NCBI GenBank assembly: GCA_027053075.1
Contig: JALUEE010000017.1
Coordinates: 1 to 56,160, forward strand
DNA: 56,160 bases
From: a candidate division WOR-3 bacterium
GTDB lineage: Bacteria > Hydrothermota > Hydrothermia > B15-G9 > WFZT01
Direction: 5' to 3'
The stretch's first letter is position 1. Every line of letters starts with the position of its first letter. A model generated the notes under the pieces. It made no database searches. It was not told the DNA's origin and saw only the letters and a program-made list of their open reading frames with translations. Shown here piece by piece: positions 21,755 through 52,979 of the stretch. A program made the translations under genes and the position numbers.

Positions 21755-21882
21755 GATATTTTCGAGGAATCTATGTTTAAATTGAAAAAGATATAAAATC
21801 CTATACTCCCACAAAAATCCAGCGGGCAACTTTGTATAATCTGATGTATAATTTCAAAAACTTTCCCGGAGGTCATTGGATT

Positions 21883-23940
21883 ATGAGGAAGTTCCTTATC
21901 GTAACTCTACTTGTTTTCTCTCAACTAACAGCACACAAGGTGGAGCTATTTGATGGTAGAGTTATCAAAACTCATAAGCTTGAGCTGAAGAATGGATTTT
22001 ACATCCTTGATGACACGGTAGTGAGCAAGTTGGATGTGAAAAAGGTCATCTTTTCAGGTGGTCCGAGCGCTTACCTGCCAGTTCGATACAAGCTGGAAAA
22101 TGTAGACAGTGTCCTTGCAAAGGCCAAAAGAGCGCGGGAACTCTATCCAGATGCCAGCGGAATTGTTCTACTTGATCAGGGATTTTACGTTTTGGAGATG
22201 GATTCAACTCGGTACAACCGATATCACTTCCAGGGCCTGATTCTCAAGGATGAGGCACGGAGCTGGGCAAATGTCAGGATTTATGTCGATGAAGATATGA
22301 TGAAAGCGCGGGTGCTCGCTGCAAGGTGCATTAAGCCAGATGGCAGGGTGATCTACCTCAATCCCAAAGACGTCAAGATCACCAAACCTAAATCCGGACT
22401 GGTTTTCTTCGGTAAGGGGAAGGTGATGAGCTTTACCATCCCTGGTGTCGAAGTCGGGGATATCGTTGAATACGTCTATGAATACAACATTTTCAATCCC
22501 TGGGATAAACATGTATTTTCTGAAAGATGGTTCTTTGGTGGAGACAAGCCCGTCTATCACTCAGAAGTTACATTCAAACTGCCAAAAACTGAATTTTTCA
22601 AATACTTGATCAGAAATACAGACCCCAAAAATGTTAAATATGAGAAATCATCTGTTGGACCCTTCAATCTGTACAAATTCTCCATGGACCAGGTTGACCC
22701 CTACCTCACTGAGCCACAGATGCCACCAGTTTCTGATGTGATTCCGGAGATTGCTATAACCAACCAGAAATCCTGGGACTATCTCTACACGTGGTATGCG
22801 AAATTCCAGAAAAAGAGAATGGTTATCACCCCGGAAATTCAGAGCCTCGCGGATAGCATCGTTAAAGGAGCCACAAGTCTTGATGATTCTATTGCAAGAA
22901 TCTACTACTGGGTCCAGCAGAACATTCGCTATATCTCCATCAAAGGAGGTGCATCCTCCGGAGTGTCCGGTCATCCGGCCACAGAAACCCTTCACAAGGG
23001 CTATGGAGACTGTACGGACAAATCCATTCTGTTTTCCACATTGCTCCGGGCAATTGGTGTGATGGGGTACCCGGTTTATATTGAGACAAACGACGAGGGC
23101 ACATTTTTGAAAGATATACCATCGTTTCAGGGAAACCACGCAATTACTGAGATTATCACGAGGGATGGAAGAGATTTCTTCTTAGATGCAACAGGTTCAA
23201 CCAGCCGATACCCCTATTTCTGGTCAGCAGACCATGGTGTCTGGGCACTCAACGCACAACTTCGAAAGATTTCATTTATCAAGGTCCCACCACCGGAAGA
23301 CAACTGGAGGCAGTACACGTATAAATTAACCATAAAACCCGATGGAACCACGCGGGTTGAATTTACAGGCAGGTACACAGGAGATATTGAGGCCGGGATT
23401 CGCTGGTACTGGCAGCATGTTAAAGAAAGCGAGAGAAAGAACCGCATGGAGCAGATGATTCAGGCAACTGCACCGGGTGCAAGGCTCGTTTCATACGAAC
23501 TCGGGCCGCTTTACGACCTCTCAAAGCAGTTCTACCTCAAAATCACATTCGACATTCCGGGATACCTGAAGAGCATCGGTGACCTGAGACTTCTTGAGCT
23601 CCCTGATGTTAAAAATCGCTACAGATTCCCTGAAATCTCGGTTAAAAATCGGCACTATGACATTGTTTATAGAACCTCTTACAAAGTTTCACACGACTTT
23701 TACGTCAAATTCCAGGGCATGAAATTAAACTACCTTCCGGATTCGATTAGCATCAAGGACAGGCATTTCACCTACGTTTCTTACTTCAAAAAGACAAAGG
23801 GAAACGAATTTGAATACCACGATGTTTTCCGAAGATGGGACAGGATTATTCCAGTGAGTGACTATCAGTCATACAGAGAGCATCTTTTAGAGCTTCTACA
23901 TCATCTTCGTAAACCCGTAATTTTTGAGGGAGGTAAGTAA
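21883..23940 (+). CDS. DUF3857 + transglutaminase-like domain protein (predicted active)
   Basis: Signal peptide; PGVEVGDIVEY; WVQQNIRY; GDCTDKS (Cys), NHAI (His), LDAT (Asp). Confidence 0.87.
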   Translation: MRKFLIVTLLVFSQLTAHKVELFDGRVIKTHKLELKNGFYILDDTVVSKLDVKKVIFSGGPSAYLPVRYKLENVDSVLAKAKRARELYPDASGIVLLDQGFYVLEMDSTRYNRYHFQGLILKDEARSWANVRIYVDEDMMKARVLAARCIKPDGRVIYLNPKDVKITKPKSGLVFFGKGKVMSFTIPGVEVGDIVEYVYEYNIFNPWDKHVFSERWFFGGDKPVYHSEVTFKLPKTEFFKYLIRNTDPKNVKYEKSSVGPFNLYKFSMDQVDPYLTEPQMPPVSDVIPEIAITNQKSWDYLYTWYAKFQKKRMVITPEIQSLADSIVKGATSLDDSIARIYYWVQQNIRYISIKGGASSGVSGHPATETLHKGYGDCTDKSILFSTLLRAIGVMGYPVYIETNDEGTFLKDIPSFQGNHAITEIITRDGRDFFLDATGSTSRYPYFWSADHGVWALNAQLRKISFIKVPPPEDNWRQYTYKLTIKPDGTTRVEFTGRYTGDIEAGIRWYWQHVKESERKNRMEQMIQATAPGARLVSYELGPLYDLSKQFYLKITFDIPGYLKSIGDLRLLELPDVKNRYRFPEISVKNRHYDIVYRTSYKVSHDFYVKFQGMKLNYLPDSISIKDRHFTYVSYFKKTKGNEFEYHDVFRRWDRIIPVSDYQSYREHLLELLHHLRKPVIFEGGK

Positions 23941-23941
23941 A

Positions 23942-25969
23942 ATGAGAAAATTCCTCGCACTTTTAATAGTTTTGCCACTTTTTGGCATGAGTAAGACTCC
24001 CAAAATTCTGACACGAGATATCGTTTATCTCAAAAATGGTGAAGAAATAATGGGCTCCGTGGTCAAGATTACCGGTGATTCACTTCTAATTCTAACAGGC
24101 CACGGGAATATTAAGCTTGCACGTGGGGCAGTCTTGAGCATCGAGTCCTCAAAGAGACGTCCCGGTGATATGTGGGAGAAGGTATCGGACATAAAAGATA
24201 CGCTCCTCTTAAGGGCACTCAAAATCAATGTGGACAGCATTTTCCCCAGCGCAGGGTATGTGAATATCTTTGTCAGAAAAAGCTTCAAATTAAATAACGG
24301 AAACTACGAATACACGGAGAGGAAAATTATAAAAATCCTCAAGGAACGCGGGAAGCGCGCTGCAAACAGATTTTTTAGATACCACCACAGATACGAAAAG
24401 GGGGAAATCGTATTTGCGAGGACTGTCACAAAAGATGGTAGAGTGGTTTCTATTCTTGATAATGCCATCGAAGATGCATCGGTCTTTTCAAACTATCCCG
24501 ATTATGACGACCTGCACCGCATAAAATTTGCCATTCCCGAGGGTGAGCCAGGGAATATCCTGGACTACGAAATAAAAATCACCGGTAAGAGTTCGGGGAA
24601 ACATCCTGCTTTGAGACGCATTCTGATGGGTGACAATGATCCAACTTACGAAGAAATCGTCTCAATAAGTGGCCCAAATCTTATCATCAAGACCGAAAAT
24701 GCCGAAAATCTAAAGGCCGATACCTCGCAGAGTGGAGAAGTGGTATTCACCCTCAGGAATCATCCGGGATATATTCGGGAACCCCATATTCCACCGCTTC
24801 ACTACATTTTGCCTGCGATCACAGTGGCAGAGAGAGCAGGGCTCGACTATTACAGGGCATATCTTGACACTTTGCTTGCCAATTTCGATGCTGAAAGGCT
24901 CATTGACAGTCTTGCTTCAAGGGCTCTAACCCTCGAAGACACAGTTTTTGCCCTCTACAGATTTGTTGCCCAGAGCATAAACCGGGTGCCGGCAGACGGA
25001 AATTCATTCAGCATGTTTCCAAAGGCCCCGGGAAAAGTGATTAAAAACTCAATGGGCAGCGAGGTTGACAAAGCCTTTCTCCTTTATGCCATTCTAAAAA
25101 AGGACGGGCTTTCCCCTGAGCTTATTCTTACCACATCAAAGGACCTGTGGAATACATACCCGGATATTCAGAACATTTCTCAATTCTCGGGCATCATCGT
25201 TAAGCTGGATAGTGTTTATCTCGACCCTGTAAACGACCGTATGCCTCTTGGATACGTGAGACCAGAGTACCAGGGTACAAGAGGGGTCACCCTTGATGGC
25301 ACGTCAGTTGAGATTCCATTCATCCCCTATGAAAGAGAGGGTGAGACCAATTTTATGAATATCACCCTGACCAACACCGGAGACCTGCTCGTTTCCGATA
25401 AGTATCTCTACAGGGGAGAGGATGGGGTGATGGTAAGAAGCCTCAAACAGTACAGAAAAGTGGAGCTTGAGAAACTGCTTGAGCAGAGTGTCAACTGGGC
25501 TCCTGGCACCGTCCTTGACTCCTTTAGTCTATCCGACCTGCAGGACCTTCGAATTCCGCCACGCATTTCGCTCTATTACCACATCCCCGAGTATGCCATT
25601 GTTGCCAATGACCTGATACTCCTCAAGATGCCTGATCTAACCGAATACACTGCCTCGGATGTAGGTGCTACCGAAAGGTTCAACCCACTCTACTTCTCGA
25701 GAAATTACAGGAGAATCAAGGACATCGTAATAAATCTACCACCTGGCTACATGGTGAGGTACATTCCCGAAGGATTTAAGGGCAGGGTCAAATTCATGAG
25801 TTTCAATTCGCTTCTTTTCAAAGATTCTGGAAAGGTGCATTACAGCGACGAAACTATAAGATTTGGTGGTATCTACGAGAAAAGTCTTTACCCGGATTAC
25901 AGAAAAATCGTGGAAGGTATGGCTCGCCTGAGGGACAACTATATTGTGCTGCAGCGGATGAAACGGTAA
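23942..25969 (+). CDS. DUF3857 + transglutaminase-like paralogue (predicted inactive)
   Basis: Signal peptide; same architecture; GSEVDKA lacks Cys; QFSGII lacks His; YLDP retained. Confidence 0.8.
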   Translation: MRKFLALLIVLPLFGMSKTPKILTRDIVYLKNGEEIMGSVVKITGDSLLILTGHGNIKLARGAVLSIESSKRRPGDMWEKVSDIKDTLLLRALKINVDSIFPSAGYVNIFVRKSFKLNNGNYEYTERKIIKILKERGKRAANRFFRYHHRYEKGEIVFARTVTKDGRVVSILDNAIEDASVFSNYPDYDDLHRIKFAIPEGEPGNILDYEIKITGKSSGKHPALRRILMGDNDPTYEEIVSISGPNLIIKTENAENLKADTSQSGEVVFTLRNHPGYIREPHIPPLHYILPAITVAERAGLDYYRAYLDTLLANFDAERLIDSLASRALTLEDTVFALYRFVAQSINRVPADGNSFSMFPKAPGKVIKNSMGSEVDKAFLLYAILKKDGLSPELILTTSKDLWNTYPDIQNISQFSGIIVKLDSVYLDPVNDRMPLGYVRPEYQGTRGVTLDGTSVEIPFIPYEREGETNFMNITLTNTGDLLVSDKYLYRGEDGVMVRSLKQYRKVELEKLLEQSVNWAPGTVLDSFSLSDLQDLRIPPRISLYYHIPEYAIVANDLILLKMPDLTEYTASDVGATERFNPLYFSRNYRRIKDIVINLPPGYMVRYIPEGFKGRVKFMSFNSLLFKDSGKVHYSDETIRFGGIYEKSLYPDYRKIVEGMARLRDNYIVLQRMKR

Positions 25970-25977
25970 ATTAATAC

Positions 25978-28662
25978 ATGATTCGTCGGGAATTTGGAAA
26001 ATATAAGGTCGAATCCTGGATAGGAGGGGGACAGTTTGCAGACGTTTTCCTCGTTCTGGACACCATAACAGAAAAAAGATACGCCCTAAAAGTTTCAAGA
26101 ACCCGTGAAAAGGACATTGAGATGCTCAAGCGCGAGGCCCAGCTCCTCGCGTCATTGGAGCATCCAAACATTGTAAGATTCTATACCGCAGAGCTGATCG
26201 AGGGGAAGCTTGCCATTGTAATGGAATTCGTGGATGGATACTCACTCAGAAAACTTATCGAAGAAGAGGCTCCACTTGATGAAACACGGGCAATTAGCAT
26301 TATTACTGACGTTCTTGAGGCCCTCTCCTATGCCCATTCAAGGGGTGTGCTGCACAGGGATATAAAACCCGAAAACATAATGCTAACCCGGGACGGGGTT
26401 GTGAAGCTCACCGACTTTGGGCTTGCGGTAATGCTTTCAAGCAGCTTGAGTTTTTCCATGGCAGGAACACCGATCTACATGGCACCTGAGGCATGGAGCG
26501 GGAAAATGCGGAAAGAGTCAGACATCTGGTCAGTTGGAACTGTTCTCTACGAATTATTAGCAGGATACCCACCATTTTTTGCAGAGACCATAGAGGAATT
26601 ACGAAACCAGGTTTTTAAGGGCAAACTCAAGAAACCACCAAGAATTTCCCCTGAGCTTTTTGAAATCATTAAAAAGGCTTTAAGAAAAGCACCACAGGAG
26701 CGTTTCAAAACCGCTTCGGACATGAGAAAGGCCCTCGTGGATTACCTAAGACGTGGGGGTGGGGATATTTCGCTTAAATCCATTCAGGTCAGAAGGAAGG
26801 TCTCCCCACTTTTAGAGGGATTGACCGAGGAGCAGAGAGAAGCGGTTTTGACCGGTGATGGCTACTTCCTTTTACTCGGAGGAGCGGGAACAGGTAAAAC
26901 CACCACACTCGTGCATAGAATAGCCTATTTGATCCACGAAAAAGGGGTGCCGGCAGACAGAATCCTTGCCGTGACATTTACAGGTAAGGCAGCAGGAGAG
27001 ATGAAAGAGAGGGTTGAAAAGCTCATCGGTGAGGGAAACACAAAGAATCTCTGGACAGGCACCTTTCATTACTTCGGCAGAAAAATCGTTTCATACGGAA
27101 TCGAGCGCCTTGGCTATCCTGAGGAGTTTCAGCTAATCGGCAGAGAAAACCAGGAAGAGTTATTTGAAAAAGCCACAGGCATCAGGGCCAAGGAAAAGAT
27201 TCGCGCTATCCTGAAGGAAATTTCCCGATATAAGTCAAACCTCGTCTCTGCCGACTATCTCCTTGAGAATGTAAAAAGCCGCTGGAAGAAAGAGGTTGCC
27301 GAGGCTTACGCAAAATACCAGAGAGCTCTGTTTTTTGAAGGGCTACTCGACCTCGATGACCTTATTTTCCTCGCCGTGCGACTTCTGCGGCAGTACGATG
27401 ACATAAAAGAACTATTCAGCGAAAAATTCAAATACCTCCTCGTGGATGAATTTCAGGACATCAATAGAGGCCAGTTTGTAATGCTTCAGATTCTCTCATC
27501 AAGGCATAAAAACCTTTTCGTAACCGGAGACGATGATCAGTCCATCTACGGTTTCAGAGGGGCATCGAGTAAATTTCTCACCCAGTTTAGAAAATTCTAT
27601 CCTGACCACAAAGAAATCAGGCTTACGCAGAACTTCCGCTCGCCTTCAGAGATTATTACAGTGGCAAACACCCTGATTTCCCACAACGAATCAAGGATAG
27701 ACAAACTGATAATCCCCCTTCGTGAGAGCAACGAAGAAGTTGTAAAATTCTACGCAGCCCGAAATGAAACTGACGAGGCTGAATTTGTGGCAGAAAAGAT
27801 CTTAGAGGAGCGGGAGCGTGGAAGGAGCTTTGATGACATAGCGGTTCTCATCCGCCTTAATTCCCTCTCAAGGCCCTTTGAAGAGGTTTTTAGCCGTAAA
27901 AAAATTCCATTTAACGTGCTCGGCTTTGGGGGATTCTACGAGCGAGAGGAGGTAAAGGCTTCCATAGGATTCTTGCGGTTTATCATGGGAACACGCAAGG
28001 CATCTGACCTTCGCCTGATGCTGACCCGATTCCTGAGATGGCATCCAAAAGACGCAAAGGCAGCCACGAAGTATTTTGACAAAACCGGGAAACCCACATT
28101 TTCAAAAAAATTCAGCGATGAGATGAAAAAGGCACTGGAGAATTTCTGGAAGTACCTGAACACATTTGACCCGGAGCAACTCAAGATTCGCTCGCCACAG
28201 GAGTTACTTGAGGAGCTTTACGATGTTACCGGCTACATGCGTTACCTTGAGGAAAAAGATACTCCATCCCGACTGATGGAGAAGGATAATATTGACGAGC
28301 TTTTAGGCATCGCAGGGATGTTTAAAAGAGGGGAGCTCAGGGAATTTCTCTCACATGTATCCATGATGCAGCATCTTGGTGAGGAGTTTCGCTCCCTCGG
28401 TGGTGTCAGAATCATGACCGTCCACCAGGCAAAGGGACTGGAATTTCCTGTTGTGTTTGTGGTTGGTCTTGTCGAGGGTGTTTTTCCATTATTTAAGTCC
28501 GTGGCGGAGAAGGAGAGTCTTGAGGAGGAGCGCCGACTCTGCTACGTTGCCATCACAAGGGCATCGGAAACCCTTTATTTGACATATCCAAAGAAGCGTT
28601 TTAAATATTACCAAGAACCCTCCCGATTCCTTTACGAAATGTACGTCAGGGAGGAAAGGTAG
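25978..28662 (+). CDS. Fusion of Hanks-type Ser/Thr kinase and UvrD/PcrA (SF1A) helicase
   Basis: Kinase: GGGQFADV, ALK, HRDIKPEN, DFG, APE. Helicase: GGAGTGKT, TFTGKAA, DEFQD, GDDDQSIYGFRGA, QNFRS, TVHQAKGLEF, EERRLCYVAITRA. Confidence 0.92.
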   Translation: MIRREFGKYKVESWIGGGQFADVFLVLDTITEKRYALKVSRTREKDIEMLKREAQLLASLEHPNIVRFYTAELIEGKLAIVMEFVDGYSLRKLIEEEAPLDETRAISIITDVLEALSYAHSRGVLHRDIKPENIMLTRDGVVKLTDFGLAVMLSSSLSFSMAGTPIYMAPEAWSGKMRKESDIWSVGTVLYELLAGYPPFFAETIEELRNQVFKGKLKKPPRISPELFEIIKKALRKAPQERFKTASDMRKALVDYLRRGGGDISLKSIQVRRKVSPLLEGLTEEQREAVLTGDGYFLLLGGAGTGKTTTLVHRIAYLIHEKGVPADRILAVTFTGKAAGEMKERVEKLIGEGNTKNLWTGTFHYFGRKIVSYGIERLGYPEEFQLIGRENQEELFEKATGIRAKEKIRAILKEISRYKSNLVSADYLLENVKSRWKKEVAEAYAKYQRALFFEGLLDLDDLIFLAVRLLRQYDDIKELFSEKFKYLLVDEFQDINRGQFVMLQILSSRHKNLFVTGDDDQSIYGFRGASSKFLTQFRKFYPDHKEIRLTQNFRSPSEIITVANTLISHNESRIDKLIIPLRESNEEVVKFYAARNETDEAEFVAEKILEERERGRSFDDIAVLIRLNSLSRPFEEVFSRKKIPFNVLGFGGFYEREEVKASIGFLRFIMGTRKASDLRLMLTRFLRWHPKDAKAATKYFDKTGKPTFSKKFSDEMKKALENFWKYLNTFDPEQLKIRSPQELLEELYDVTGYMRYLEEKDTPSRLMEKDNIDELLGIAGMFKRGELREFLSHVSMMQHLGEEFRSLGGVRIMTVHQAKGLEFPVVFVVGLVEGVFPLFKSVAEKESLEEERRLCYVAITRASETLYLTYPKKRFKYYQEPSRFLYEMYVREER

Positions 28663-31969: not shown

Positions 31970-32332
31970 ATGGTTACGCTGATGCTATTAATATCATTAC
32001 TTGGCTCGCCGGTTAACATTCCGGTGAATAGTGTGAGACCATCCGTGGCACGGGTGAGTTACCTCAAGCCCAGCAGATTTGAATTTTTCACCTACATGGA
32101 TTCCCATGGAAATATGCTCACTGGCAACCAATTTAGCTTCAATTACGGCAAAAATCTCAGAATTGGATGGGGGATATTAAACTACTCAAGAATTACGGAT
32201 AGACTAAAATTTGGCACTACATTTGGGATTCTATCCCTCGAGTATTCGAAAGATATCTGGGGTGGAAAGATTAAGATAGGCTATCAGCAGAGCTTCCCCT
32301 TACAGAGACGGGACTTATTCTGGAAAAACTAA
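31970..32332 (+). CDS. Hypothetical exported beta-strand-rich protein
   Basis: Short hydrophobic N-terminus; alternating aromatic/polar strands; own promoter; abuts next gene. Confidence 0.65.
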   Translation: MVTLMLLISLLGSPVNIPVNSVRPSVARVSYLKPSRFEFFTYMDSHGNMLTGNQFSFNYGKNLRIGWGILNYSRITDRLKFGTTFGILSLEYSKDIWGGKIKIGYQQSFPLQRRDLFWKN

Positions 32333-32791
32333 ATGTCTTCCTACAAACAACTGCAGGAGGAGATTCTTGCTGCATTCGGAGGAGCTCGAGACCTACAGTT
32401 GCTGAGTTTATTGGTTTATGGTGAGGCTCGTGGCGAAAGTCTCGATGGAAAAGCCGGCGTGGCATGGGTTGCAATCAACCGCAAGAATAGAGGAGGATGG
32501 TTTGGGAATTCCCTAAAACAAGTGATCCTGAAACCTTACCAGTTTAGCTGTTTTCTTCCTGGCGATCCGAACTTTAATATCCTTCTTAATATACTTGAGA
32601 ATTTTGACGACCGTATTAAAAGTGATCCTGTGTTTCGGGAGTGCTATTACATCGCAAAGGGGGTTATGGATGGCTGGATACGGGATGTTACACGTGGAGC
32701 CCTGTACTACCACTCAAAGGCTATCTCGCCGGGCTGGGCAAACACCTACAGTCGCAAGGCAGAGATAGGTAACCACGTTTTCTACGGATAG
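32333..32791 (+). CDS. Cell wall hydrolase, SleB/Hydrolase_2 family
   Basis: VYGEARGE, VAWVAINR, PYQFSC, GALYYH, IGNHVFY. Confidence 0.9.
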   Translation: MSSYKQLQEEILAAFGGARDLQLLSLLVYGEARGESLDGKAGVAWVAINRKNRGGWFGNSLKQVILKPYQFSCFLPGDPNFNILLNILENFDDRIKSDPVFRECYYIAKGVMDGWIRDVTRGALYYHSKAISPGWANTYSRKAEIGNHVFYG

Positions 32792-34180
32792 GTGCAGCAG
32801 TACAAAACTCCTGCATTCGTCGTATTTATATGCTTTTCCACCGGAATCATTCTCGGATTCCTCAAAAGTCCGGTCTTTGCCATTTTTTCTTTTATTGCAA
32901 TAAGTCTACTGCTCGTCTATCTAAGAATTTTCCCCTACATAATCCTCGTCATTCTGGGCTTTACTTATGTAAAAATCGATCTTAAAAAACTGAGAAATAG
33001 TGCTGAACTTGTTCCCTTCGCCCAAAAGGTGAGAGTTTCAGGACATATTGAAAATGAAAAATTCATCCGTGTGAATGAGATAGAAACCATTCATGATGTA
33101 AGAAGGATAAAAACGAAGTTTTTCATAAGAAATGCACCGGACATTGAATGTGGAAAAGTTACCATCTCCGGTGTCATCCGAAGGCCAAAGGGTAGTTTCC
33201 GGATTTATCTGCTCTCAAATAAAGCAAATGGAGTTCTAAAATTGCTGTATCTTAAGAGAATTCCCACCAGAAAATGCGCTCCTCGTGATTACATAAGGAA
33301 AGTTTTAAAGAGAAACTCTTGGGATATAGAGAATTTTTCCATCATGAGAGCACTCGTTCTCGGTGAAAGAATTGGTTTGTCAAAAGGTACTTTAGAACTC
33401 TTTAAAAGAACCGGAACCATGCATATTTTGGCACTTTCTGGGCTACATGTGGGGATCATAACCCTGATAATATTTGCGCTTTTCTCTCTATTTCGGATCG
33501 AGAAACGAATAGCCCTGATTGCAACTGGAGTCACCTTGACCCTCTATCTGTCTCTTATCGGATTTAAATCCTCACTGCTTCGTGCCTATCTGTTTTTCCT
33601 GGCAATCATTATAGCGAAGCTTTCAGAGAGAAAGGTAAGATACTTGAATATTTGGGGGTTCGCCGGATTTTTGTCCCTTGTTTATAACCCTCTATGGATT
33701 TTAAATGTTGGATTCCAGTTTTCATACATCACCACACTTGGGATAATTCTTACTATCATTCCCCGACTCAAGGGCATCAAAGGATATATCATTACAAGTC
33801 TTCTTACCTCTCTCGCGGCGACCCTGTTTGTTTCACCACTACAGATATACTACTTCAAGTTATTTACACCAGTATCAGTTCTCTCAAACCTCGTTGCGAT
33901 CCCCCTTGTTTTTGTCATACTTTCAGAAGTTCTTGTTGGGATTTTATTGAGTTTTCTGCACGCTGGTGTTATTGCTCAACTGTTCTTTGAGGTTGCAAAT
34001 CTCGCGATCAAGATTCTCCTTGGATTTCTAAAAGTTATCCTTCATCTCGGACTCAGTTATAGATTCGAAGAATCACCCATAAACGCCTACCAGGCTCTGG
34101 TATTAATTGCCTTTCTGGTAGTATTTACTATGGGTGTAAGAAGAGTGGTTACGGAGATAAAGAAACCAGATGAGGGATAA
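32792..34180 (+). CDS. comEC: ComEC/Rec2 competence membrane protein (no metallo-beta-lactamase domain)
   Basis: ALVLGER, TGTMHILALSGLHV, LLRA, GFQFSY, SNLVAIP. Confidence 0.88.
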   Translation: MQQYKTPAFVVFICFSTGIILGFLKSPVFAIFSFIAISLLLVYLRIFPYIILVILGFTYVKIDLKKLRNSAELVPFAQKVRVSGHIENEKFIRVNEIETIHDVRRIKTKFFIRNAPDIECGKVTISGVIRRPKGSFRIYLLSNKANGVLKLLYLKRIPTRKCAPRDYIRKVLKRNSWDIENFSIMRALVLGERIGLSKGTLELFKRTGTMHILALSGLHVGIITLIIFALFSLFRIEKRIALIATGVTLTLYLSLIGFKSSLLRAYLFFLAIIIAKLSERKVRYLNIWGFAGFLSLVYNPLWILNVGFQFSYITTLGIILTIIPRLKGIKGYIITSLLTSLAATLFVSPLQIYYFKLFTPVSVLSNLVAIPLVFVILSEVLVGILLSFLHAGVIAQLFFEVANLAIKILLGFLKVILHLGLSYRFEESPINAYQALVLIAFLVVFTMGVRRVVTEIKKPDEG

Positions 34181-36206: not shown

Positions 36207-36325
36207 TGTAACATTTTGTTACAGATTATTCAGTGTAACATTTTGTTACAGTTACATCCCGGGGGAATCAATTTTCGCAAAATTGGATTTTTCTTTTGTA
36301 TTACTGTAACATTTTGTTACAGTAA
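36207..36325. promoter_or_regulatory. Three identical 17-bp palindromic operator/enhancer sites
   Basis: TGTAACA-TTT-TGTTACA at 36207, 36234 and 36305; the third extends to TTACTGTAACATTTTGTTACAGTAA (36301-36325). Confidence 0.85.
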
Positions 36326-36384
36326 GCTCCACAGTTTTTAATAAAGTCTTTATAAGCTGTGCTAACTCCGGAACTTATGTGTTG

Positions 36385-36400
36385 TGGAAGCAAAATTGCA
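36385..36400 (+). promoter_or_regulatory. Sigma54-type -24/-12 promoter
   Basis: TGGAAGCAAAATTGCA: GG-N10-GC with TTGCA; 40 nt before the lipoprotein ATG. Confidence 0.6.
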
Positions 36401-36440
36401 TATTATAAAAACGTAAAAACTTTAAAAGGAGGTAAAAGTC

Positions 36441-36983
36441 ATGAAGAAGGTAGTCGCATCCATAATTGCCGTTGCCATGGTCCTGGTCCTGGCGAACGGC
36501 TGCAGCACTGTAGGGCAAACCACATATAAGGGGTTCAACAGTGTAAAGGCCTTCAAAATAGTAAACGCACCCGCGGCTAAGAGCAGTCTCCACTTTGAAA
36601 AGACCTTAACGCCAGGTCAGGGTGGTGTCGTATCAGGTTCTTACAACATTGGGAATGTGCAGGTAACATACACGGTGACTGTCCCAGCCGGTGCACTTCA
36701 CAACACAGAGACAGTAACTATTGATATTCCAGATGTCACAGAAGCAAGAGAGGACCTTGGTCCATCTCCTTACACATTCAACAAGCCGGTAACGGTAACA
36801 ATGTCCTTCAAAAATCTTCCCAACGTCCCTGATCCGTCCGATATTCAGGTTGCATGGTTTGACGCAAATGCAGGTGAGTGGATAGTGGTTCCTTCTACTG
36901 CAACTGTAAGCGGAAACGACCTTACTGTGACCTACAGAACCAGCCACTTTACCTACTGGATTATCATTGACCCCGACGAATAA
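36441..36983 (+). CDS. Lipoprotein with ZU5-like domain ending in an HFT motif
   Basis: Lipobox LANG-C21; GQGGVV, VPAGAL, LGP..TFNKPVTVTM, W, SHFTYW; AAAGGAGG RBS. Confidence 0.75.
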   Translation: MKKVVASIIAVAMVLVLANGCSTVGQTTYKGFNSVKAFKIVNAPAAKSSLHFEKTLTPGQGGVVSGSYNIGNVQVTYTVTVPAGALHNTETVTIDIPDVTEAREDLGPSPYTFNKPVTVTMSFKNLPNVPDPSDIQVAWFDANAGEWIVVPSTATVSGNDLTVTYRTSHFTYWIIIDPDE

Positions 36984-37012
36984 ACCTATAAAACCACCTG
37001 GGTGGTCTAGTC

Positions 37013-37216
37013 ATGGAAGCTGTCATGAAGGATATCAATTGGAACGACGAAATAGGAATTCTGGGGCGAGATAAGGACCTAATCATTTGGATATATGATT
37101 CCCTGAGTTCAGCATGGGGATTAAGCTCTAATCATCAATCCAGCACCGGAGGCATAAACAGTACGATATTTGACAAAGAGGCTCTGGATATATTTAAGGA
37201 GGAGATGAAATTATGA
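37013..37216 (+). CDS. Small hypothetical protein
   Basis: Fills the gap between the lipoprotein and TPR genes on the same strand; no motif recognised. Confidence 0.45.
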   Translation: MEAVMKDINWNDEIGILGRDKDLIIWIYDSLSSAWGLSSNHQSSTGGINSTIFDKEALDIFKEEMKL

Positions 37217-37230
37217 AAGGGGTGTAAAAT

Positions 37231-38328
37231 ATGTATAAAGACGGAAATATAGGATTTCATATAACAGAACTGTACAAAAAAGCGCTCGAGATAATCCCAT
37301 TTGACAAGCAGGTAGAGTTATCTGTAGAAACGGCTGAGATATTCCTGAGCATAGGCGAAATTCGAAAAGCAGAAGAAACTGTGCAAAAAATTGTATCTAG
37401 TAGTGAATTTCCTAAACTCCCGGCTAATTTAAGATATACGGTATTCAACAAATTATTCAAAATTTACTATAAGTCAGGGAATTACGTAAAAGCTGAAGAT
37501 ACTCTGAAGAAACTACTCGAGATTTCAAAAGATATTAAGGATGAAAACCTATTATGCAATATCTATGTAAAATTTGGTAATGTTTACGCCCGAAAACGCG
37601 ACTTTGAAAAAGCCAAAGAGTTTTACACCAAAGCTGTTGAGATAGGAGAGCAAACGGATGGTGCAAGAAGATGTTTGGCCTCCGCCTACAACAACATTGC
37701 TGTGTACTATATTTTAGTTAACAACGATTCCGACCGCGCATTGATATATTTCCAGAAAGCTCTATCACTATATGAGTCCGAATCCAACAATATAAGTATT
37801 ATTGCCCGAATAATTCTGAACCTTGGTAACCTATTTAAAACCAAAGGATACTACGAAAAAGCCCAAGACTATTATCAAAGAGCACACTCATTCGCAATTA
37901 AACACCATCTATTAGACATATTGGCCAATGTCTACCACGAGAAATCCGAAATATTTTTTGCAATAGAGGAATACGAACTTAGCGAAATATTTATAAAGAA
38001 AGCGCTTGAGCTTCATAAAGCACTGAATGGGCGAGAAGGTGATTATAGAGCAGGTCAGGCATTCGAATTACTTGCGAAAATTGAGGAGAAAAAGGGTGGT
38101 AGCATCGAGAGAATCCGGGAATATGTCCACGAAGCAATTGGCTATTATACCAAAAGCGAGTCGTGGGACGATGCAATAAAACTATATGATTTTCTTGGAG
38201 ACGTCGCTTATAAGCGGGGAGTTTACTCTATATCTAAAGAATCATACGAGAATGGACTAATATTCGCCCAAAAATACGGTATTGAGGAGTATAAACAAAA
38301 ATTACAAGATAAGTTGAGACTTTTATGA
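37231..38328 (+). CDS. Tetratricopeptide repeat protein (no output domain)
   Basis: Repeated TPR signatures (FGNVY..KAKEFYTKA, YNNIAVYY..ALIYFQKA, NLGNLF..AQDYYQRA). Confidence 0.85.
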   Translation: MYKDGNIGFHITELYKKALEIIPFDKQVELSVETAEIFLSIGEIRKAEETVQKIVSSSEFPKLPANLRYTVFNKLFKIYYKSGNYVKAEDTLKKLLEISKDIKDENLLCNIYVKFGNVYARKRDFEKAKEFYTKAVEIGEQTDGARRCLASAYNNIAVYYILVNNDSDRALIYFQKALSLYESESNNISIIARIILNLGNLFKTKGYYEKAQDYYQRAHSFAIKHHLLDILANVYHEKSEIFFAIEEYELSEIFIKKALELHKALNGREGDYRAGQAFELLAKIEEKKGGSIERIREYVHEAIGYYTKSESWDDAIKLYDFLGDVAYKRGVYSISKESYENGLIFAQKYGIEEYKQKLQDKLRLL

Positions 38329-39998
38329 AAGTTAATTCGGATGATGCGATAGAGCACTGTTACAAGAACACTGAAGGCAAAAGTGAAGGTGAACTCGTGC
38401 GCTGCTTGGAAAAGGAGGTAAAGAGTGCGGAGCGATCTGGAGATAGAGAGAAGGAACTCGGAATACTCCTGAAAATAGCTAATATATTGATTCAACGGGG
38501 TGAAATTAGGAAATCAGTGAGTTACATAGAGACTGTTCGAAACAGAATTGAGAACTTAAAAGATGGCGAGTATAAAGCGAGAATGTGCTTGCGGTTAGGT
38601 AGATTATATCAAGAAATTGAACGGTACGATAAAGCGCTCTTCTTTTACAGAGAAGCTGAGAACCTGCTAACTCCCTATGACTCCAAGAACATTGAAGCCA
38701 ATAAGTTACTAATAAATATAAAAAATAACAAAGCTGTGATATTTCTATTTCAAGGAAACGTTGAAGAAGCCATAAGGCAGTTAGAGGGGGTGGTTTTAAT
38801 TTATGAAAACTCTACATTTAAAACCGTTAAAGAAACCAAAATATATATATCCGCATTGGCAAACCTCGGCAATATCTATCACGAACTAAACAACTCCAAC
38901 AAAGCCTTATATTACTTCGAGAAAGCAAAAGAAAAACTTTCAGATTTAGTAATCTCTAACAAGGACGTAATTGGTAAAAAGGTCGCCTTTGGGGTCTATA
39001 TAAACCTATCCCACCTTTACGTTCACGAAAGAAAATTGGAATCTGCCAAAAGGCTGTTAAAATTGGCGAGAAAGAATTTCCCACCTAATTACAGATTATC
39101 TAAAATTCATTATCTAATCGTACTATCAAAATTCTGGATGGAAAAAGGTAATTATGATCATGCAGTTAAAATTCTACAAAAAGCTCAAAAGCTCGGGAAT
39201 GAAACCAAACACGAATACGTAGAAGGTCTCATTCTAAATGAATTAGGTATATTTTATAAAACCATCGGGGATTATCAAAATGCTCTAATCAATCTCATTA
39301 AAGCGAGAAATTTCTTCCAGAAAATAAAATTCTATAAAGCACGCGTAAAAAATACAATTGACGAGATCGAAGGTAATTTCATAAAAATTGCTTCGCAGTG
39401 GGGGGCAAAGGTTGAGCTTAAGGATCCGTATACGCTCGGACATTCTGCGAGGACCACCTACTATGCATTTCTTATCGGTAAAAGACTACTGGATGATGAG
39501 CTCTCACTTAAGGGGCTTTTAATAGGAGGCTTCCTCCACGACATAGGCAAACTCAAAATCGACGATAAAATCCTTTTGAAACGCGGAAAATTGACTCCGG
39601 AAGAAAGAAAAGAGATCGAAAAACACCCTGTTTACGCAATTGAGCAGCTTAAAAATATCGAATTCCCTTGGAAAAATGTGAAGGACTGCATTCTGTACCA
39701 TCATGAAAAGTATAATGGGACAGGATATCCTGAAGGTTTAAAAGGAGAGCAAATACCATTGTGTGCAAGAATTATAGCTGTGGCCGACGTTTTCGATGCC
39801 CTCACCACTGATAGACCTTACCGTTCAGCACTTTCCTGGCAGGAGGCTCTGAGTTTCATTCAGGAAAACAAAGGAAAATATTTTGACCCAGTTGTAGTAG
39901 ATACCTTTGCAGAAATCCTTGAGAAACTTGATAAAAGCCTCATAAGCACCCAACACACAAAACACATGGTTGAAGAGCTATGGAGATTTTTCGCTTAA
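38325..39998 (+). CDS. TPR-domain HD-GYP cyclic-dinucleotide phosphodiesterase
   Basis: N-terminal TPRs; KDPYTLGHS, LHDIGK, KHP, HHEKYNGTGYP, ADVFDALTTDRPYR; ATGA overlap with the TPR gene. Confidence 0.9.
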   Translation: MKVNSDDAIEHCYKNTEGKSEGELVRCLEKEVKSAERSGDREKELGILLKIANILIQRGEIRKSVSYIETVRNRIENLKDGEYKARMCLRLGRLYQEIERYDKALFFYREAENLLTPYDSKNIEANKLLINIKNNKAVIFLFQGNVEEAIRQLEGVVLIYENSTFKTVKETKIYISALANLGNIYHELNNSNKALYYFEKAKEKLSDLVISNKDVIGKKVAFGVYINLSHLYVHERKLESAKRLLKLARKNFPPNYRLSKIHYLIVLSKFWMEKGNYDHAVKILQKAQKLGNETKHEYVEGLILNELGIFYKTIGDYQNALINLIKARNFFQKIKFYKARVKNTIDEIEGNFIKIASQWGAKVELKDPYTLGHSARTTYYAFLIGKRLLDDELSLKGLLIGGFLHDIGKLKIDDKILLKRGKLTPEERKEIEKHPVYAIEQLKNIEFPWKNVKDCILYHHEKYNGTGYPEGLKGEQIPLCARIIAVADVFDALTTDRPYRSALSWQEALSFIQENKGKYFDPVVVDTFAEILEKLDKSLISTQHTKHMVEELWRFFA

Positions 39999-50051: not shown

Positions 50052-52979
50052 TCATTTCAAAAACACAGTCTTCCTAACCCATTTCCTCTCACCTGCTCTC
50101 ACCCTCAGAATGTAAGTTCCAGCTGGCAGTCTCGAGAACCTGATCTCGTTCAATCCCTTCCTCAATCTGCGGTTGTCCGTATAGCATTTTCTACCAGCAA
50201 CATCGAAAATTTCCAGACTGACTTTTGTCTCTCTAGGTGAGAGAATCTTAAGCTCCCGGGTTAGTGGATTTATTCCGATTATTTCCACATCTTTCACAGG
50301 ATTAGACTCTGAGATACCGATGACGAATACCTCAAATGTATCGGAATACGTGGCATTCCCGGCATTATCGCTCGCTCTTACAAAGTACGATAGATTTGTA
50401 ACACCTGACGGCAGGGGGATAGTAGCCATCCATCCGTTAGATTGAACCATGGCCATTGAGTCAAACGGAGCCTCGTTAAAGCTGTAAAACAGGGTTACAC
50501 CAGCCACTCCACTTAAACTGTCACTTACATGGGCATAAATGCTCAAAGAATCAAAGCTTATCGTGTCTCCAGGAAAACTAACAGAATCAATTTGGGGTGG
50601 TGTGATATCAACTCCGAAAGAATCAGGCTGTGACCAGTCAGATGCATTCCCGGCTCCATCAATTGCCATAACCTGCCATGTGTATCGTCCTTCTGGAAGG
50701 TTGCGCAAGTAATAGTTTGTATCCACTGTATCAACAACTGTGCCGTTTATTTGGATGATATAACTAACAGGGGTTCCTTTCAGATGGGAGGCTGTCCATG
50801 AGAATTCCACAATCGTGTCATTGAGCCATTCACCACCAATCGGATGAAGCAATCCTGGAGTACCTGGTGCCCTCGTGTCTATTATGAATGTGAAGGGTTC
50901 TGCAGAATCTCCATAAGCACCAAAAGGACCGACTATTCTGACGGTCCAGATGTTTGTGCCGATATAAAGATTATCAGGCACGGTTAGAGTCGTATCACCA
51001 TCAACATGGTAGATGTAGTAATTGTGAGTATTGGTGTTGTAAATCTGTACACGGTATGTCCAGAAAGTTGCATCCGGTGCCGACCACACAAGGGTTGGAG
51101 TCCGTGTATTAATCATGGCACTGTCTGGTGGTGATATCAGAGTGGGAACAGGAATATTATGGGTGACACCTACACTTAGTCCAGTAGGGTGGAGGACATA
51201 AATCATCGTATCCCTTGCGAGTATCTTATTCCCGGCAGTCATGTATCCAACAATTTCAGGGGAGGCAGGATTCGATATGTTAAGAATATATCCAGTACCG
51301 TAAACCGGGCTTGATTCTCCAAGTACATAGAGAAGATTACCTCGAGGCAATAGACAGGTTACGTGTGGATACGGAAGAGTGACACTCCCTACCACTACTG
51401 GATTTGCTGGATTTGACACATCGATAACTGTTATGGAGTTTGACCCTCGGCTCTGAGCAGTAAAGACATAGTTACCCTGTGCCGCTATTACCTCGGGATC
51501 AAAATCGGCTGTATCGAAGGTGTCTATCATTGTCGGAGACGCCGGGTTTGAAACATTAACGATGTAAAGATTGTTCCCGTTTGCGATAAAGAGGAGGGAA
51601 TCCTTCAGGTAGAAAGTTTTAAGGTAAATATCCGGAATTGAAAGCGCCCCTACGGAATCTGGATTCATTGGGTTCGAAACATTGTAAACAACCACTCCCC
51701 GCGAGATTTGCAGGGTGAGAAGGAAAGAGTCTTTTAAGATCATATCCTGTAGGCCGTAAGTGTTGATATGGCCAAGCAATTGAAGCGACTCAGGGTTCGA
51801 CACGCTTAAGATAGCAATTCTCCCATAGCTACCAGCGAAAATAACGGAGTCATTTGCAGCAATGGTCTGGAATCGCTGATTATACTCAGTGTAACTGCCC
51901 ACCTCATGGGTAAGGATAGGGTTTGAAATATCAAGAATCCTCACACCTTTATATCCACCTGCAACGTAAGTGTAGTTTCCTTTTAAAGTAAAATCATTTC
52001 CAGCTACACCCTCAGTAGTTGAGTAACGAAAAACTTCCACTGGATTTGATATGTCCTCAAAAACAAATAGCGAATCATATCTTGAAGTAATGAGAGCATT
52101 TACAGTAGCCTCAATAAACTTTCCATAATTGTGATCGGTATTGTGGGCAATAAGCTGTGGTGAGGTTGGGTCCGATACATCGTAAATGTAGAATACCCCA
52201 TGGCTGCTACTGGTTGCAATGAAAAGCATGTTGCTCTGATAAGAGAGATTTACAGGTAGGTCCGATGACATATTTATTGTAGAAAGAACGGTAAGGCTGG
52301 ATGGGTCTGTTACATTGAGAATATAAATCCGGTACGACGTTCCAGCGAATACAATCGTGTCTGCAACTTCTACACTTATAAAGTATGAGCTCGAATCGTT
52401 GAAATTGCCTACAGCCTGAGGGGATGAGGGATTTGAAATATCATAAATCCACATACCATTATTGTTTTCGGCTGAATAAATGAAATTACCTGACACTCTG
52501 AAGTCTTTAACCAGTCCGTGAGGGTTGAAAGAAGACACAAGGACAGGATGAAGGGCATTTGAGATGTTCAGGATATAAAATTTATTGCTTTTGGCCAGAA
52601 AAAGGTGATCACCGGTGACAGCCATTTTGTCTGCGCCAAGGGAAACGTAGTAGAAATGGCCGGCTACATGAGGGTGGTTGAGGTCTGATATATCCACAAT
52701 AAGTAAAGTATCGCGACTGGTCATAGCGAATAGGTAGTCACCCGCAACTGCTATTGCATTTATAGGTCTCCAGAGGTTTATCCTGCCCACAATGTGTGTA
52801 TTCTGGGGTTCGGAAAAATCAAGCACGTCAATTACACCGTCTTCATTCAGGACAAAGATGAGCGAGTCTTTTATAGTTATTCCTTGTACTTCAGAGAAAG
52901 GTTTATAAGCAATTAGCTTAAGGAAATGACTGTAATTTGGAACAGTTAACAGTGAGATAATCATCATCAACGTTACCAT
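50052..52979 (-). CDS. Secreted LVIVD-repeat (beta-propeller) protein with Ig/FN3-like domains and T9SS-type C-terminal sorting domain
   Basis: Many I.DIS.P..P..VG repeats; YTWQVMAIDGAGN, YFVRASDNAGN; C-terminal LEIFDVAGR..LPAGTYILRV..KTVFLK. Confidence 0.85.
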   Translation of the reverse strand: MVTLMMIISLLTVPNYSHFLKLIAYKPFSEVQGITIKDSLIFVLNEDGVIDVLDFSEPQNTHIVGRINLWRPINAIAVAGDYLFAMTSRDTLLIVDISDLNHPHVAGHFYYVSLGADKMAVTGDHLFLAKSNKFYILNISNALHPVLVSSFNPHGLVKDFRVSGNFIYSAENNNGMWIYDISNPSSPQAVGNFNDSSSYFISVEVADTIVFAGTSYRIYILNVTDPSSLTVLSTINMSSDLPVNLSYQSNMLFIATSSSHGVFYIYDVSDPTSPQLIAHNTDHNYGKFIEATVNALITSRYDSLFVFEDISNPVEVFRYSTTEGVAGNDFTLKGNYTYVAGGYKGVRILDISNPILTHEVGSYTEYNQRFQTIAANDSVIFAGSYGRIAILSVSNPESLQLLGHINTYGLQDMILKDSFLLTLQISRGVVVYNVSNPMNPDSVGALSIPDIYLKTFYLKDSLLFIANGNNLYIVNVSNPASPTMIDTFDTADFDPEVIAAQGNYVFTAQSRGSNSITVIDVSNPANPVVVGSVTLPYPHVTCLLPRGNLLYVLGESSPVYGTGYILNISNPASPEIVGYMTAGNKILARDTMIYVLHPTGLSVGVTHNIPVPTLISPPDSAMINTRTPTLVWSAPDATFWTYRVQIYNTNTHNYYIYHVDGDTTLTVPDNLYIGTNIWTVRIVGPFGAYGDSAEPFTFIIDTRAPGTPGLLHPIGGEWLNDTIVEFSWTASHLKGTPVSYIIQINGTVVDTVDTNYYLRNLPEGRYTWQVMAIDGAGNASDWSQPDSFGVDITPPQIDSVSFPGDTISFDSLSIYAHVSDSLSGVAGVTLFYSFNEAPFDSMAMVQSNGWMATIPLPSGVTNLSYFVRASDNAGNATYSDTFEVFVIGISESNPVKDVEIIGINPLTRELKILSPRETKVSLEIFDVAGRKCYTDNRRLRKGLNEIRFSRLPAGTYILRVRAGERKWVRKTVFLK

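Follow-up and report, generated by a model that had tools for sequence, protein, structure and literature searches.

Does a predicted self-cutting lipoprotein encoded beside cytoplasmic TPR proteins furnish a peptide signal that these proteins read? The question is raised by a cassette at positions 36,207 to 39,998 of contig JALUEE010000017.1 (assembly GCA_027053075.1) from a candidate division WOR-3 bacterium; the window analysed here is the 56,160-nucleotide (nt) stretch from position 1 to 56,160 of that contig. The gene order on the plus strand is a lipoprotein of the ZU5/GAIN fold, a 67-amino-acid (aa) open reading frame (ORF), a minicistron, a TPR-only protein, and a TPR-HD-GYP protein. 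A first-pass annotation had proposed that a peptide cut from the lipoprotein is sensed by the TPR proteins and tunes cyclic dinucleotide levels. It was found that close relatives swap, as a single block, the last codons of the lipoprotein gene together with the small ORF and the two TPR regions, and that the lipoprotein is linked family-wide to sigma-54 activators and to TPR-fused outputs (HD-GYP, Ser/Thr kinase, or activator). The module is real, conserved, and undescribed in the literature searched, and the peptide-sensing interpretation is partly supported. The features of the cassette are listed below, where a slash in H169-F170/T171 marks the predicted cut.

36207..36223, no strand: palindromic box 1, TGTAACA-N3-TGTTACA, a predicted sigma-54 activator enhancer, at -233 to -237 in the 5/5 genus loci that are long enough
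36234..36250, no strand: palindromic box 2, at -205 to -207 in the same five genus loci
36305..36321, no strand: palindromic box 3, at -133 to -139 in 6/6 genus loci
36385..36399, plus strand: sigma-54 -24/-12 promoter TGG-N8-TTGC (GG-N10-GC), at -52 to -58 in 6/6 genus loci; start site predicted
36441..36983, plus strand: predicted lipoprotein of 180 aa with Cys21, a single ZU5/GAIN-fold domain, and H169-F170/T171; lipoprotein signal judged by eye
36951..36983, plus strand: codons of the ten-residue tail TYWIIIDPDE, a predicted cleavage product, at the left edge of the swapped block
37013..37216, plus strand: acidic 67-aa ORF with no signal peptide by eye, hypervariable between alleles and open in 9/9 genus loci
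37213..37227, plus strand: four-codon minicistron MKGV-stop with its own Shine-Dalgarno sequence, from the comparison of genus loci
37231..38328, plus strand: predicted cytoplasmic TPR-only protein of 365 aa (Pfam TPR_12, 3.5e-24)
38325..39998, plus strand: TPR-HD-GYP protein of 557 aa, with a variable TPR part (about residues 1-350; TPR_12, 6.9e-23) and a conserved HD-GYP phosphodiesterase domain (Pfam HD_5, 1.2e-41); its start overlaps the TPR-only stop by ATGA

The palindromes, the promoter, the HF/T lipoprotein, the small ORF, the TPR-only gene, and the translationally coupled TPR-HD-GYP gene all lie where the first-pass annotation had put them. The minicistron and the allelic block swapping are additions to it.

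How is the cassette inherited within the genus? The same order occurs in nine genus loci (G000, which is the host genome of the window, G001, G003, G004, and L015-L019). As had been annotated, the cassette lies between an M20 peptidase gene and recD2. Both are on the minus strand, and this is a fixed, single chromosomal site across the genus. When G000 and G004 are compared in 100-nt bins, the bins of the lipoprotein gene are 78-93% identical and those running from the HD-GYP domain on into recD2 are 92-99% identical; in between, the value falls to about 45-65%, which is alignment noise. At the protein level, the TPR-only proteins of the two genomes are 39.6% identical and the TPR parts of the fusions 35.3%, against 99.0% for the HD-GYP domains. 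The TPR-only protein of the window is 36-40% identical to four genus alleles. Five proteins whose HD-GYP parts are 92-98% identical carry three TPR types, with 30-46% identity between types, and the TPR parts paired with such HD-GYP parts are 30-73% identical. Mosaics were also found. As far as the HFT codons, L016 is the same as G001 at 504/504 bases; beyond them its tail differs, and both the small ORF and the start of the TPR are of the G003 type. L015 has a lipoprotein body closer to G000 (93.1%) than to G004 (86.8%) and is followed by the tail (89% vs 63%), the small ORF, and the TPR (96%) of G004; the body of L019 is closer to L015 (94%) than to G000 (90%) and is followed by the tail (100%), the small ORF, and the TPR of G000. 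Together with the conserved HD-GYP domains that carry divergent TPR parts, these three mosaics show a single unit of exchange made up of the tail, the small ORF, and both TPR regions. Its left edge coincides with the predicted cut site or lies shortly before it, and its right edge lies at the start of the HD-GYP domain.

Is the lipoprotein associated with similar partners outside the genus? Against 1.84 billion representatives, a profile built from the nine genus sequences matched 338 relatives. In its own phylum, where five candidates were scored per genome, the TPR-HD-GYP family is present in 6/272 genomes (G000, G001, G003, G004, G080, and G005), and the first five of these are the five genomes with a stand-alone HF(S/T) lipoprotein; in G005 the contig ends inside the TPR-only gene, and the same type is whole in L018. 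In a phylum of seven genomes, the lipoprotein and TPR-HD-GYP occur in the same two. A codon-pattern scan, in which one tail type and hence one subfamily is visible, gave 33 loci, nine of them family members. A TPR-HD-GYP and a sigma-54 activator lie on the same strand in 6/9 family loci, as against either one in 0/24 non-family loci. Another set holds 39 stand-alone loci: L172 and 38 that were selected on score in a sample of 121 genomes from the phylum to which a Krumholzibacteriota record (L085) belongs; L147 repeats L088. An activator is directly upstream in 27 of these 39, a TPR gene lies within 600 nt in 15 (14 of the 24 with enough downstream DNA), and one or the other is present in 33/39 vs 0/20 multidomain-ZU5 controls from the same sample. 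The TPR partner in this set is mostly a Ser/Thr kinase-TPR protein of 1220-1350 aa, which is sometimes accompanied by a convergent TPR-bearing activator. Some TPR-HD-GYP homologues bear Zixibacteria and Gemmatimonadota names. Co-occurrence of the lipoprotein, TPR-HD-GYP, and activators, which the first-pass annotation had suggested looking for, is found across several phyla; the lack of co-occurrence that the annotation had named among its refuting outcomes was not observed.

A variant module of activator, lipoprotein, and kinase-TPR protein may be recorded separately. It is arranged on the same strand in L135, L136, L138, L144, L156, L158, L159, and L162, and convergently in L141, L152, L157, L163, and L170; some of these loci also have a convergent sigma-54 activator that bears TPRs.

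The box TGTAACATTTTGTTACA, a 17-bp palindrome, is present in three exact copies at 36207, 36234, and 36305. At up to two mismatches the window has four matches vs 0.14 expected, and outside the cassette the 2.44-Mb host genome has no further copy at up to one mismatch and no second box-bearing promoter among its 438 TGG-N8-TTGC sites. The exact box is present in 3/61 relatives, all within the genus. The promoter lies 56 nt from the start of the lipoprotein gene. A TGG-N8-TTGC site within 350 nt upstream was found in 32/52 distant lipoprotein genes vs about 0.03 expected per 350 nt, a rate taken from the density of the 438 host sites, with five loci that have no located lipobox excluded. The host genome (95% complete) encodes RpoN, eight sigma-54 activators, and six GGDEF matches. 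With a GG-N10-GC promoter, upstream palindromic sites, RpoN, and activators all present, sigma-54 control of the cassette, which had been proposed from the window, is supported.

The first-pass annotation had noted that the cassette encodes neither a peptide importer nor an activator. This stands for the cassette itself, and candidates for both lie elsewhere in the genome: a complete Dpp/Opp peptide importer operon on contig C40, and a 328-aa sigma-54 activator (G000:C33:25660-26646) with an intact GAFTGA motif and no sensory domain, which may act on the cassette in trans. Among the eight activators of the genome it is the best pairwise match for 6/6 activators of TPR-HD-GYP cassettes, and it groups with cassette activators in a quick tree with a Shimodaira-Hasegawa-like approximate likelihood ratio (SH-aLRT) support of 80. 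In G003, the boxes and a near-identical promoter also precede two gene pairs, one for a lipoprotein and a small membrane protein (L194:1512-3050, on G003:C15), the other for a secreted protein with a glycine zipper and a membrane protein. Behind a second promoter copy lie the genes of a Cys-rich precursor of 46 aa, of a 345-aa protein, and of YcaO (L195:1-3526, on G003:C137). I read these as bacteriocin-like genes and genes for ribosomally synthesized and post-translationally modified peptides (RiPPs), and it is possible that they form a competition regulon under the same activator. Bacteriocin-like and RiPP outputs are typical of peptide quorum sensing. The extra box-driven lipoprotein gene of G003 adjoins a transposase-like gene.

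What kind of protein is the lipoprotein? Its C-terminal end reads HFTYWIIIDPDE, in which HF/T is followed by nine residues. Among the matches listed, 88/111 homologues of up to 320 aa (one of them added from another search) have H-x-S/T in the last 30 residues, and the tail after the motif is 6-18 residues long with a mode of 7-8. The family alignment comprises 89 sequences picked mostly for the H-x-S/T ending, and H169 is invariant in these rows; the lipobox Cys21 is conserved in at least 90% of the rows, the lipoprotein-type signal being judged by eye. The window protein alone has no Pfam match, ZU5 included, and it is not among the 12/89 family members that match Pfam ZU5 at E<=0.01. A genus-only profile has no match in the PDB, and the best matches of the 89-sequence profile there are ankyrin ZU5 domains (E 0.00067). 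The predicted structure is a beta-sandwich (pLDDT 91, pTM 0.81) that places H169-F170-T171 between the last two strands, 160-169 and 172-176. The closest structures in a VIA search are ankyrin ZU5 (Z 10.1-10.4; for the top match, root-mean-square deviation 2.9 over 116 aligned residues), CD97 GAIN (8.3), and UNC5b (8.2), and NLRP1 and CARD8 score lower. Both the ZU5/GAIN-B fold and an H-x-(S/T) motif before the last strand are seen in the model, and so the assignment as a ZU5-like lipoprotein holds for the predicted structure. MAIN and GAIN domains cleave at the same motif and position, according to the available part of a preprint by Brogan and Rudner (bioRxiv 10.64898/2026.05.12.724683). Self-cleavage of the lipoprotein at HF/T is likely on this structural ground. 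The top structural match, ankyrin ZU5, is not known to self-cleave. The mechanical release that had been considered as a possibility is without support, because there is no adhesion domain on the released side of the lipoprotein.

Three other groups of relatives were observed. Homologues without HF(S/T) in L012 (6178-8658), L013, L014, L059, and L060 (6362-8018) lie next to TPR-like genes and have no HD-GYP and no sigma-54 promoter match. In L026 (5857-11106), L061 (7314-8000), and L064 (2-838), large secreted proteins have a ZU5-like domain with HFT or HLS right before a C-terminal sorting-type domain, which is a MAIN-like architecture in diderms. In a subfamily including P0031, P0032, P0036, P0038, P0058, P0066, P0085, and P0110, among others, the tails vary in length and all end in (K/R)-A/S-G/S-W, beyond the structural strand.

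The HD-GYP motifs of the fusion protein were said to be intact, and the full set for binding of metal and substrate is present: E364-L-K-D, H373, H405-D406, K409, H434, H459-H460-E461, G467-Y-P, D488, and R497-P-Y-R500. A role of an N-terminal Glu in HD-GYP domains is described in the available part of a survey (10.1101/2021.11.05.467447), which contains no mention of TPR; by its position, I take E364 to be this Glu. The protein is predicted to be a phosphodiesterase that degrades cyclic-di-GMP (c-di-GMP). In its TPR part, N135, A149, N180, and A194 are invariant across 80 homologues, and Asn is invariant or near-invariant at 135, 180, and 227.

How might these components work together? A sigma-54 promoter with three enhancer boxes would drive transcription of the cassette. 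The lipoprotein would be exported, lipidated, and self-cut at HF/T, and the ten-residue tail would be released, which is a weak step since the strand is buried. The released tail would be imported by the Dpp/Opp transporter encoded elsewhere in the genome and would bind the cytoplasmic TPR proteins; this binding is the other weak step. The TPR proteins would set the activity of the fused HD-GYP phosphodiesterase and thereby change c-di-GMP hydrolysis. The TPR-only protein and the acidic small protein may modulate the fusion protein as RcbA does RcbB, and the sensor-less C33 activator may close a feedback loop in trans. Since the last ten codons are exchanged together with TPR proteins of a peptide-binding type, the tail is likely a strain-specific signal, and by analogy with agr or Rap-Phr pherotypes, I infer that the alleles are specificity groups. 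I consider the chances about even that the cassette is an RRNPP-like peptide signalling system with a self-processing lipoprotein as precursor and with specificity groups; the whole basis of this reading is anatomy, fold, motifs, linkage, and swaps. A more specific proposal is offered tentatively, with the odds somewhat against it. In this proposal, the module serves peptide quorum sensing and kin recognition in diderm bacteria. The pheromone would be a Stachel-like strand, the last one of a ZU5 lipoprotein that cuts itself, and would be sensed by cytoplasmic TPR proteins with c-di-GMP, Ser/Thr kinase, or sigma-54 outputs; within the genus, pherotypes would be swappable with the cleavage site as breakpoint, and the activator would also drive the bacteriocin-like and RiPP genes.

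Several observations weigh against the peptide signal. Block exchange is what matched signal-receptor pairs would need, and hitch-hiking would also produce it: crossover may fall at HFT only because this is where the last stretch with enough conservation to recombine ends, the tail following behind it. The tails differ by one to four residues, and tail position 2 tracks the TPR type imperfectly, L016 having Tyr with a G003-type TPR. The tail pattern S/T-x-Y/W-x-hydrophobic is also accounted for by the fold. In the model, the tail forms one of the core strands of the sandwich, and nothing in the cassette would pull it out; the fragments of MAIN proteins stay associated and are freed only by SDS or 95 C, as far as the available part of the preprint describes (bioRxiv 10.64898/2026.05.12.724683). 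The homologues of genera g10 (translated by hand) and g15 have no HF(S/T), yet they adjoin TPR-like genes. No partner match was found in 3/9 family loci of the codon-pattern scan, and 6/39 stand-alone loci have neither an upstream activator nor an adjacent TPR gene. Asn-rich TPRs are common. A careful tree leaves the C33 activator unplaced relative to the cassette activators. Finally, the genomes are kin, so that the counts depend on one another, and they are given with no claim to a statistical test.

Some of these observations would suit a sensor that serves the single cell. The TPR proteins might detect the lipoprotein or its tail upon failed export or folding, or after periplasmic degradation, and report the state of the envelope to c-di-GMP and sigma-54 with no signal between cells. 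The lipid anchor and the buried tail speak against free diffusion, the homologues that have no cut motif retain TPR neighbours, and activators and TPR outputs are linked family-wide. However, with a private sensor it is hard to see why at least six divergent alleles should be exchanged at one site, and the bacteriocin-like genes behind the same enhancer in G003 are left unexplained. I regard an envelope or export sensor as rather unlikely, though it is the best of the alternatives.

Is the small acidic protein the ligand? It might form, with the two TPR proteins, a cytoplasmic phosphodiesterase switch resembling RcbAB, and the lipoprotein would then be a co-regulated surface output. The ORF (62-80 codons) lies within the swapped block and is open in every genus locus. 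Its product is acidic, with an isoelectric point (pI) of 4.05-4.73 in the eight genus loci computed, against the basic TPR part of the fusion (pI 9.4). RcbA de-represses RcbB via a TPR-TPR contact, according to the part of the report available (PMC12282931). In contrast, the small protein diverges far faster than the TPR within one TPR type: G003 and L016 share 19 identities over 68 codons of the small ORF vs 86% over the first 57 TPR residues. In L070, L095, and L172, moreover, the TPR-HD-GYP gene begins within 100 nt of the lipoprotein gene, with no space for the ORF. For both reasons the small ORF was downgraded as the main ligand, which I now hold to be slightly less probable than the envelope sensor, and its product is more likely a modulator.

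The minicistron reads M-x-G-V/A-stop in seven loci (G000, G001, G003, G004, L015, L016, and L019). In L017 it is reduced to start-stop, and in L018 it is fused to the small ORF as its last codon; it therefore likely serves to couple translation of the TPR gene, and the L017 form led to its rejection as a peptide signal. With its own Shine-Dalgarno sequence, the arrangement resembles the engineered bicistronic design. Also, an inverted repeat ACCACC/GGTGGT follows the lipoprotein stop (window 36993-37006) and covers a Shine-Dalgarno-like site of the small ORF; otherwise it is present in L019 only.

Base composition bears on whether the cassette is a conflict or self/non-self system, in which variable TPR proteins would detect proteins of invaders or competitors, with the lipoprotein as a decoy or trigger and nucleotide signalling as the output. 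The TPR genes had been described as more AT-rich than the flanking genes. This is true of the TPR-only gene (36.5% GC) and of the TPR part of the fusion (35.5%), which are in the lowest 2% of 1275 long ORFs (44.3 +/- 3.1%). It does not extend to the HD-GYP part, whose 41.5% is like the flanks (M20 41.2%, recD2 42.4%), and at third positions M20 (0.33) is as low as the TPR genes (0.36-0.37). The low GC of the TPR regions, the en-bloc polymorphism, and the kinase-TPR proteins of 1200-1350 aa in related loci suit a conflict system, and ZU5 autopeptidases have been traced to bacterial conflict systems in the parts of the literature available. On the other side, throughout the genus the cassette occupies one fixed place in the chromosome, with M20 and recD2 as neighbours, it has a dedicated sigma-54 enhancer, and no nuclease or other toxic domain was found in it, PADLOC being outside the scope of the search. 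A conflict system is thus improbable in my estimation.

The last explanation, that an unknown lipoprotein and an ordinary, fast-evolving TPR-HD-GYP are neighbours by chance, can draw on the loci that have no partners and on the generally fast evolution of TPR proteins, but it is largely refuted by the co-occurrence controls (33/39 vs 0/20), the matched presence in two phyla, and the sharp identity steps within one gene pair, and I give it very little credence.

Other genes of the window were also noted. A Ser/Thr kinase-UvrD helicase fusion of 894 aa (25978-28662) follows a pair of DUF3857 genes (21832-25969), of which the first has a transglutaminase core. A small secreted-type ORF, a Hydrolase_2 cell-wall hydrolase, and a ComEC-like membrane gene form one run at 31970-34180 that is conserved in G001. 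An Ig/fn3 protein of 975 aa that has LVIVD repeats and ends in a secretion-system sorting domain is encoded at 50052-52979, and a KAP-family P-loop NTPase gene at 53282-54982, with 29% GC, was likely acquired. LolA and a secretion-system sorting domain in the genome point to a diderm host.

Has such a module been described before? No published description of a ZU5 lipoprotein/TPR/HD-GYP module was found in the literature searched, a search with subscription journals and bioRxiv supplements outside it. The nearest known systems each share some of its parts. RRNPP systems are defined, in the available part of a study, by a propeptide of 10-100 aa, Sec secretion with exopeptidase maturation, a TPR receptor of 250-500 aa, and adjacent genes (PMC10075063). 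Like Rap-Phr, PlcR-PapR, NprR, and AimR, the cassette has the gene of a predicted exported precursor beside a cytoplasmic TPR protein of receptor size, a predicted short C-terminal peptide, an oligopeptide importer in the genome, and putative allelic specificity groups. Both TPR proteins carry the expected repeats; the TPR-only protein with 365 aa is within the receptor size range, and TPR-HD-GYP, the family-wide partner, with 557 aa is outside it. The small ORF intervenes between precursor and receptor in the genus, and the two are directly adjacent in L070, L095, and L172. Unlike RRNPP propeptides, which are matured by peptidases, the precursor here is a folded lipoprotein of 180 aa, beyond the propeptide range, and is predicted to cut itself; the 67-aa ORF fits the range and has no signal peptide by eye. 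The output is HD-GYP, or elsewhere a kinase or a sigma-54 activator, rather than a helix-turn-helix domain or a Rap phosphatase, the host is a probable diderm, and there are two TPR proteins and an extra small protein. If the reading as a peptide signal is true, TPR-receptor peptide signalling, described for Gram-positive bacteria, extends to several uncultured diderm phyla, with a signal precursor that needs no protease.

The fold class and the H-x-(S/T) motif before the last strand are shared with MAIN, with adhesion-GPCR GAIN, and with NLRP1/CARD8 ZU5/FIIND, and the tail resembles the tethered Stachel strand. MAIN proteins, as the available part of the preprint describes them (bioRxiv 10.64898/2026.05.12.724683), are large and have a C-terminal anchor; they shed an N-terminal enzymatic or adhesion cargo, and no signalling is tied to the C-terminal piece. 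In contrast, the cassette lipoprotein has a single domain, an N-terminal lipid anchor, and no cargo, and it ends ten residues after the motif, so that only a short peptide could leave. That part of the preprint does not mention lipoprotein, ZU5, or TPR, although the preprint's tables of 15,000 proteins could include family members; whether a signal comes from the peptide that follows a GAIN-type cut in bacteria is left as an open question there. If the peptide does signal here, the cassette would be the bacterial parallel to signalling by tethered agonists, except that the agonist would be set free and detected within the cell.

In RcbAB of Vibrio vulnificus, by its description, two cistrons likewise encode a TPR protein and a c-di-GMP enzyme fused to TPRs. 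That enzyme, RcbB, is a cyclase of the GGDEF type, whereas the enzyme of the cassette is an HD-GYP, and the available part of the report (PMC12282931) describes no lipoprotein, peptide, or sigma-54 enhancer for RcbAB.

As for the pattern of variation, the staphylococcal agr locus offers a likeness. Its hypervariable block of signal and sensor is swapped between conserved flanks, with breakpoints inside genes, as is the block of the cassette. In contrast to the cassette, the agr signal is a thiolactone peptide and its sensor a membrane histidine kinase. The natural alleles of the cassette provide a ready cross-specificity set of tail types versus TPR types, which makes the idea directly testable.

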